From: a virus
Virus genome (UHGV): UHGV-0158879
DNA length: 14,220 bases
Direction: 5' to 3' (one strand)
Within the stretch, counting starts at the first letter, position 1, and each line of letters begins with the position of its first letter. Below are positions 12,956 through 13,588 of the stretch, piece after piece. Below the pieces are notes generated by a model. The model saw only the letters and a list, made by a program, of their open reading frames with translations. It was not told where the DNA came from and made no database searches. A program made the translations under genes and the position numbers.

Positions 12956-13428
12956 ACCTCAATCTCTCTGACCGTTCCGCCAGCCTCTTTGAATTTTGCA
13001 ATCAGGTTGTCAGCCTCATGCTCGAACTGGCCATAACCAGCGCCCGGCAGTGAAGCCCAGATATTGCTGCAACGGTCGATAGCCTGACGGATATCACCGC
13101 GGTCAATCATCGGTAAAGCGCCACGCTCTTTAATCTGCTGCAATGCCACAGCGTCCTGACTTTTGGGAGAGAAGTCTTTCAGACCAAGCTGCTTACGATA
13201 GGCATCCCACCAACGGGAAAGAAGCTGATAGCGCCCGGCTGCTGTTGATTTGAGTTTGGGGTTTAGCGTGACAAGTTTGCGAGGATGATCGGAGTAATCA
13301 GTGAATAGCTCTCCGCCTACAATGACGTCATAACCATGATTTCTGGTTTTCTGACGTCCGTTATCAGTTCCCTCTGACCACGCCAGCATATCGAGGAACG
13401 CCTTACGTTGATTATTGATTTCCACCAT
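12952..13428 (-). CDS. R: Endolysin R (lambda-type lytic transglycosylase)
   Basis: 158 aa, near-identical along its length to lambda R as I recall it ([61 protein letters not shown]...). Confidence 0.95.
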
Positions 13429-13519
13429 CTTCTACTCCGGCTTTTTTAGCAGCGAAGCGTTTGATAAGCGAACCTATCGAGTCAGTACCGATGTAGCCGA
13501 TGAACACGCTCGTTATATA
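13412..13519 (-). pseudogene. S: 3' remnant of lambda-type holin S (last ~35 codons only)
   Basis: Minus-strand frame ending TAA 13414..13412 encodes [35 protein letters not shown], matching the lambda S C-terminus with one difference. Similarity stops near 13520; the frame is closed by TAG at 13561..13559 with no ATG and no TM segment. Confidence 0.8.
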
Positions 13520-13588
13520 TACCCTTTGCACCAGTAACTCTCCCCTTCCCTCGTCACGCTATTCACGCAATTTAATCAGGAGAAAAAC

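Follow-up and report, generated by a model that had tools for sequence, protein, structure and literature searches.

Closest described systems

In phage lambda the endolysin R is a soluble cytoplasmic protein, for which the S105 hole is required in order to reach the wall (PMC10865782). S105 itself has three TMDs and an N-out/C-in arrangement (PMC10865782, citing Grundling et al. 2000). The locus considered here, part of a prophage remnant in E. coli, has in common with the lambda S-R-Rz/Rz1 cassette the gene order, the overlaps of the S stop with the R start and of the R stop with the Rz start, and the placement of Rz1 within Rz. It differs from lambda in having lost S codons 1-72, and with them the dual start, TMD1, TMD2 and the beginning of TMD3, together with PR', qut and Q, and its distal Rz/Rz1 is an HK97/HK022-type allele and not that of lambda.

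The second close relative is CUS-3, the P22-like, K1-specific prophage of E. coli RS218, with which the remnant has neuO and siaK1 in common; positions 1-3923, containing neuO and the siaK1 endosialidase tailspike gene, are 99.1% identical to CUS-3 (CP000711). The late-gene order of the remnant is also P22-like, with gp16/gp20 ejection proteins, a SieA-like gene and Mnt. In contrast to CUS-3, which uses argW, the remnant lies at lambda attB with a lambda-type integrase, and it is without the head genes and the whole early region, so that it is no functional prophage.

The cryptic prophages of K-12 (Rac, DLP12 and Qin) are, like the remnant, multiply deleted and IS-interrupted, with scattered intact ORFs that include lysis genes. 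DLP12 and Qin retain a holin gene, however, whereas here the holin is the gene that is cut, and the K-12 elements are lineage-wide whereas the junction in the remnant is rare (one of 5,426 genomes). Rac presumably keeps only an Rz pseudogene, beside trkG, and the same trkG/ynaK module adjoins the holin stub in a metagenome contig, OGZA01007817.1, that is described below. The defective-prophage lysis cassette of DLP12 has been discussed in connection with OMV production and host physiology (PMC7918800).

The element and its chromosomal site

The window, that is, the whole stretch of 14,220 nucleotides analysed (UHGV virus genome UHGV-0158879), is a near-exact match to the chromosome of the urine isolate E. 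coli EC931 (NZ_CP049118.1), from whose record it departs by one SNP (window 10277) and a 168-bp length difference within a heptanucleotide repeat. According to the EC931 annotation, the window lies within a prophage remnant of ~18 kb between ybhB and ybhC, in the bio-gal interval that constitutes lambda attB, and a lambda-type tyrosine integrase is found at the right end of the remnant. The late genes of the window are on the minus strand. Comparison with the intact prophage of SW4848 gave 99.92% identity over window 4919-8663 and 100.000% over window 8680-13519.

The att site between ybhB and ybhC, the tyrosine integrase, and the disappearance of essential modules relative to the intact prophages F11 and SW4848 mark the element as a defective (cryptic) prophage. 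Absent by comparison with both are Q, nin, replication, cI/cro and most of PL; the portal-to-gp7 genes are missing too. The remnant is a badly eroded CUS-3/P22-like lambdoid prophage, a product of ordinary prophage decay and a textbook defective prophage.

The holin remnant and the intact lysis genes

The lysis region of the window, read on the minus strand, consists of the following.

13412..13519, minus strand: S holin remnant (lambda-family class I), codons 73-107 and the stop, no start codon
12952..13428, minus strand: R, lambda endolysin (lytic transglycosylase), intact, 158 aa
12518..12955, minus strand: Rz, inner-membrane spanin subunit, intact, 145 aa, PF03245 E 2.9e-36
12580..12756, minus strand: Rz1, outer-membrane lipoprotein spanin subunit, intact, 58 aa, PF06085 E 1.9e-20, lipobox VVSAC

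An initial annotation of this DNA had described a holin reduced to its last ~35 codons, without a start, at 13412-13561. The reduction was borne out, as codons 73-107 alone are present, no ATG precedes them, and 13 codons before the stub the frame is closed by a stop. The span has to be shortened, since the real end of the stub is 13519 and positions 13520-13561 belong to the 3' tail of a phage ssb gene. Similarity to lambda S had been seen to end near 13520, and nucleotide alignment to lambda (NC_001416) agrees, with homology running out at window 13519; the corresponding lambda base, nt 45402, opens S codon 73, and the same endpoint is common to >5,000 E. coli genomes and >400 phage records. 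The stub protein agrees at 35/35 positions with the C-terminal part (residues 73-107) of the 107-aa holin encoded by the intact SW4848 and F11 prophages, and at 34/35 with residues 73-107 of lambda S. At the DNA level the stub and the end of the intact S gene agree at 100% for SW4848 and with one mismatch for F11.

As a lambda-family class I holin, the stub retains the homology and lacks the complete ORF, the three TMDs and the Pfam gathering score. It covers only positions 75-99 of the 99 in the PF05106 profile (Phage_holin_3_1), with 23.5 bits against a gathering cut-off of 23.8, compared to 105.3 bits for the holin of an intact relative. The dual-start motif (Met1-Lys2-Met3, giving S107 and S105) is absent along with codons 1-72. 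A Kyte-Doolittle scan of intact S located hydrophobic segments at residues 9-29 and 39-68, both of which are missing from the stub; the same crude scan called no TM segment in the stub, and TMD3 escaped it in intact S too. According to the topology published for S (PMC10865782), with its three TMDs, the C-terminal part of TMD3 should persist in the stub, so that the earlier statement that no TM helices remain is right for TMD1 and TMD2, which are gone, and too strong for TMD3. The ribosome-binding site of R (GGAG), which lies within the stub, survives. RefSeq already annotates 13412-13519 of the EC931 copy as a pseudogene ('phage holin, lambda family; incomplete; missing N-terminus').

One minor feature lies just upstream of the stub: a minus-strand GTG (13531-13529) in the antisense ssb remnant has a chance, Shine-Dalgarno-like GGAG 8 nt upstream. 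A candidate 39-codon ORF starting there would encode VQRV followed by the 35-residue S tail and would end in the R-start overlap.

The description of R, Rz and Rz1 as intact and lambda-like proved correct as to integrity and as to R, and did not hold for distal Rz/Rz1. R shares 155/158 residues with lambda R and aligns to lambda lysozyme (PDB 1AM7) along the whole of residues 1-158 (E 2.6e-104), although no Pfam family was assigned to it at E<=0.01; its N-terminus is hydrophilic, with no signal or SAR sequence, as is characteristic of a lambda-R-type endolysin. Rz, with an N-terminal TMD, and the embedded +1-frame Rz1 lipoprotein, with its lipobox Cys, have the features of a two-component spanin. 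The distal part of Rz/Rz1 is an HK97/HK022/mEpX2-type allele with ~96% DNA identity to those phages, and lambda similarity in this region is 89.8% and stops at window 12707. The RefSeq protein accessions of R and Rz are the same as in the intact SW4848 and F11 prophages.

The breakpoint and its right flank

The breakpoint and the features to its right are as follows.

13517..13519: deletion junction, 3-bp microhomology ATA common to both parents, each with an ATATA pentamer
13519..13575, plus strand: 3' remnant of phage ssb, last 18 codons and the stop (13573-13575), the end of the F11 168-aa SSB
13589..13882, plus strand: abc2, P22-type anti-RecBCD protein 2, intact, 97 aa, PF11043 1-97/97, E 4e-62
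13902..14146, plus strand: DUF5405 gene (PF17399), 3' end cut by IS5, RefSeq pseudogene
14147..14220: IS5 end (terminal inverted repeat GGAAGGTGCGAATAAGCGGGG...), inserted at a TTAG target inside DUF5405

Identity to the left parent extends up to 13519 and identity to the right parent begins at 13517, with no filler and no IS sequence or scar. At this point the left parent reads …CGTTATATA and continues past the breakpoint with AGCG, the right parent reads …GACGATATA and continues with CCCTTT, and the window reads …CGTTAT[ATA]TACCCTTT. The ssb homology to the right of the breakpoint amounts to the last 56-59 nt of the gene. The genes on the opposite strand that had been noticed beyond the breakpoint are abc2 and DUF5405, on the plus strand; abc2 is intact but severed from PL. 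IS5 continues past the window (EC931 stretch 21748 to about 22942), with its transposase annotated just beyond the window edge, and the flank then remains colinear to attR in the order DUF5405-DUF2737-LprI-xis'-int, as in intact prophages.

The exact Abc2 protein was found in normal PL operons in all ten of the contexts listed, out of 25 contigs read, the order being cI, N, …, kil, Erf or Rad52+SSB, Abc2, DUF2737, …, xis, int. In two of the ten a 168-aa SSB is immediately upstream and ends 13 nt before abc2. The opposite-strand genes beyond the breakpoint are thus the prophage's own PL-operon genes in their native order and orientation, and not foreign DNA.

Probable origin of the junction by internal deletion

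In lambdoid genomes the operons diverge from the immunity region. The intact prophage of F11 has S at 4633-4956 on the minus strand, and on the plus strand ssb-abc2 occupies 17553-18366 and ssb-abc2-DUF5405 occupies 17553-18667; the breakpoints correspond to F11 positions 4740 and 18001, which are 13,260 bp apart, with gene order and relative strands as in the window. The SW4848 prophage has the same layout. F11 and the window are 99.3-99.6% identical over the left flank (99.3% across the stub region) and 98.4% identical over the right flank; relatives of the right flank are only ~98% identical and were mapped by blastn. As no single intact progenitor at 100% on both flanks was found, the size of the deletion is an estimate from relatives.

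These comparisons make it very probable that the S stub is what was left by one illegitimate, microhomology-mediated internal deletion of ~13 kb in a P22/CUS-3-like lambdoid prophage at lambda attB. The three shared bases, with neither filler nor IS scar, are the signature of such an event. In the proposed progenitor the late operon (S-R-Rz...) would have been read on the minus strand, with the PL operon (...recombinase-ssb-abc2...xis-int) further right on the plus strand, and a deletion with one end at S codon 72 and the other 56 nt short of the ssb end would have placed the stub back-to-back with ssb'/abc2. In F11 the interval between the two breakpoints contains S codons 1-72 (the start and TMD1-2), PR' and its surroundings, Q, the nin genes (ninH and rusA among them), and beyond these the replication genes, cII, cro, cI, ral, cIII, kil, the recombinase, and all of ssb except its last 18 codons. 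PL and the greater part of its operon would have gone with them. Because lambdoid genomes are divergent, the opposite-strand arrangement follows from the deletion itself, and no inversion, foreign DNA or module replacement is needed to account for it. More generally, a truncated late gene beside opposite-strand genes in a lambdoid prophage is the expected mark of a deletion across the divergent immunity region, and opposite-strand neighbours of such a gene do not imply inversion or foreign replacement.

The initial annotation had offered recombination replacing the Q-S region as one explanation, and a foreign abc2-bearing module swapped in for Q-S would be in keeping with the high mosaicism of lambdoid phages, with the true exchange that took place nearby inside Rz (~12866, OGZA01007817.1 compared with the window), and with the Rac-type phages, which change holin family exactly at the S/R boundary. 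Nothing was inserted at this junction, however: S codon 73 runs straight into the last 56 nt of ssb with no novel DNA, and the prophage's own PL-operon genes adjoin S through the single ~13-kb deletion. A replacement would be expected to bring functional equivalents or to respect a module boundary, whereas both breakpoints are intragenic and share 3 bp of microhomology, and the right flank is colinear through DUF5405-DUF2737-LprI-xis'-int to attR. Among the homologous genomes, phages and Abc2 contexts examined, no phage has abc2 natively upstream of S on the opposite strand. Replacement of Q-S by a foreign module is, on this evidence, very hard to credit.

Distribution and age of the junction

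The junction of the S stub with ssb occurs in one of 5,426 complete E. coli genomes. The junction 34-mer (AACACGCTCGTTATATATACCCTTTGCACCAGTA) has no match in the GTDB species representatives or in the IMG/VR viral contigs. The junction does occur in one metagenome contig, OGZA01007817.1, with different flanks. This contig, compared over its stretch 1-4866, equals the window at 100% over 12867-14146, a block that begins in the 5' part of Rz and continues through R, the stub and the junction to ssb', abc2 and DUF5405. To the left it carries a lambda-type Rz/Rz1, then trkG, then a ParB-like ynaK gene; the trkG/ynaK module is common in Rac-type prophages, where the holin before R belongs to another family. 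On its right side the contig has an unbroken DUF5405 gene, with an IS5 end in the LprI-like gene instead.

Recurrence of the junction in an independent contig with other flanks shows that the deletion was inherited and is not an artefact of assembly, a possibility that had been named for the stub. A chimeric join across a repeat would not be out of character for prophage regions and IS5 copies, which are often misassembled, but the junction is off any repeat and only 3 bp are shared there. It lies, moreover, in a complete circular chromosome (EC931), it is also present in the window, which nonetheless differs from EC931 by 24 neuO heptad repeats and one SNP, and it was assembled independently in the metagenome contig with its different flanks. 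A chimeric assembly accordingly has next to no chance of being the explanation.

The deletion is older than the IS5 insertion of the window, as DUF5405 is without interruption in OGZA01007817.1. The crossover between the contig and the window falls inside Rz near window 12866, and a later homologous exchange within Rz re-assorted the left flank. The 100% identity to intact phages makes the intactness of R/Rz/Rz1 uninformative on selection. No inactivating mutation is present in R/Rz/Rz1, and the junction occurs in two different mosaic contexts; these two observations are compatible with a recent deletion, and they leave room for selection.

Given that the junction was seen in both a CUS-3-like context and a Rac-like trkG context, it could be imagined that the block from the S stub through R-Rz/Rz1 to abc2 persists as a unit and moves between lambdoid remnants as a promoterless, holin-less 'spare part'. 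We consider this a long shot. If it were true, incoming lambdoid phages might rescue the block by recombination or activate it in trans through their holins, and the outcome of superinfection would be influenced.

Consequences for lysis and expression

The R, Rz and Rz1 frames are intact, but the only known promoter/antiterminator system and the holin would have been lost with the deleted interval. Even if R were produced it would be expected to remain cytoplasmic. No alternative holin was annotated or detectable anywhere in the remnant between ybhB and ybhC, its small ORFs and membrane ORFs included. Thus an intact holin beyond the window in the same transcription unit, which had been left as a possibility, does not exist in the remnant as read, and the stub abuts ssb'/abc2 directly. 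The sole credible multi-TM protein in the remnant is the product of the SieA-like gene, which is on the strand opposite to the lysis genes. Other holin candidates among the small and membrane ORFs were rejected as spurious overlapping ORFs. A query across the junction, extending from the last part of S into the beginning of R, found no second copy in EC931. With no other holin in the remnant, and with R needing the S105 hole, the cassette cannot work as a lysis unit, and the lysis ORFs would be passengers in which mutations have not yet accumulated.

Expression of the cassette was evaluated by a crude consensus search, which weak or non-sigma-70 promoters could escape; it found no sigma-70-like site on the minus strand from upstream of R through the far side of IS5. 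A promoter made at the junction by the new TATATATA run was also considered and discarded, as the best -10-like hexamers are not paired with a suitably spaced -35 and the scan called no promoter there. The IS5 transposase gene is oriented towards R and the lysis genes, and read-through from IS5 into antisense abc2, the stub and R is conceivable.

The initial annotation had further argued for a domesticated prophage. That the element is a defective, holin-less prophage was upheld, but its domestication found no support in view of the single occurrence of the junction in 5,426 genomes, the lack of a promoter-like site in the consensus scan, and the presence of several lesions. A domesticated, holin-less lysis module would be one in which R-Rz-Rz1 is kept under selection as a latent autolysin, released on membrane compromise or through another phage's holin in trans, with proposed uses in OMV, eDNA or biofilm formation or in altruistic lysis on superinfection. 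The intactness of R, Rz and Rz1 and the preservation of the R ribosome-binding site within the stub would suit such a role, as would the occurrence of the stub junction in two mosaics, each with an intact R and a different intact Rz/Rz1 allele, and the retention of other host-useful genes (neuO and the SieA-like gene). A precedent exists in the DLP12 lysis cassette and OMV production (PMC7918800), but the DLP12 cassette has an intact holin. Conservation across the host lineage, which domestication would lead one to expect, was not seen, the junction being found in one of 5,426 complete E. coli genomes and one metagenome contig but neither in the GTDB representatives nor in IMG/VR; the crude consensus scan saw no promoter-like site upstream, and 100% identity to intact phages allows no time for visible selection. 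We therefore regard a latent autolysin as improbable, and neutral loss following the ~13-kb deletion as the preferred account. The several independent lesions in the element form a pattern typical of neutral decay.

Other lesions and retained genes

Beyond the lysis region, the following features of the window bear on the state of the remnant.

4023-4274, plus strand: Arc/Mnt repressor (PF03869 and PF11423)
4963-5457, plus strand: SieA-like superinfection-exclusion membrane protein (phrog_7745, E 7e-109)
~8661..8679: head-gene deletion junction, ~18 nt matching neither parent
10552-11076, plus strand: 174-aa protein (phrog_5483), no Pfam or PADLOC match

The head deletion that had been recognized from the start was confirmed by comparison with SW4848, relative to which ~8.5 kb (SW4848 stretch 3746-12280), from gp7 to portal, is missing at window ~8661-8679. 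The lost segment, made up of head and tail-accessory genes, begins near the end of the gene for the terminase large subunit, takes in portal, scaffold, coat, gp4, gp10, gp26, gp14 and gp7, and reaches the start of a gp20-like gene, and the junction sets a 3'-truncated terminase large subunit ORF (441 aa compared to 471 intact) beside a 5'-truncated gp20-like ejection gene. The head-gene deletion is independent of the holin deletion. Outside the window, xis is truncated ('missing N-terminus'; EC931 stretch 24169-24285). Two deletions, an IS5 insertion and a truncated xis would together leave the remnant without the capacity for induction, replication, DNA packaging or host lysis. For the EC931 element, phage formation and host lysis are thus impossible, and beyond annotation hygiene the finding is of little importance. 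Alignment of the int-proximal region to relatives breaks into two pieces, a sign of one more small deletion.

The live biology of the remnant probably resides only in its lysogenic-conversion genes, namely phase-variable neuO, the SieA-like exclusion gene and Mnt. The SieA-like, Arc/Mnt and 174-aa genes look like morons, and all three are present in the intact SW4848 prophage. A PADLOC scan of the remnant ORFs that had no assignment returned no matches.

The neuO VNTR (poly-psi) occupies window 696-774, with 11 copies of AAGACTC (GAGTCTT on the plus strand) in a minus-strand gene at ~50-790. The gene is in phase OFF, its ATG frame differing from that of an otherwise intact NeuO body. The repeat number of neuO follows a multiple-of-three rule (PMC3046976), with which the OFF state at 11 copies agrees. 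In the RefSeq record of EC931 the repeat is 24 copies longer (35, again OFF), and neuO is annotated there only as a 111-aa 'acyltransferase' fragment. Owing to this difference in copy number, the window represents a different read-out or isolate of the locus.

A search with the int-proximal 2.4 kb found no intact sibling at the same att site, the best match being a more eroded remnant in E. coli EM20-18-50. This is a different lambdoid remnant (15656-22737), also between ybhB and ybhC, containing IS1, a truncated Erf, abc2, DUF5405, DUF2737, LprI, xis and int, and its presence there therefore indicates that independent decay recurs at this att site.
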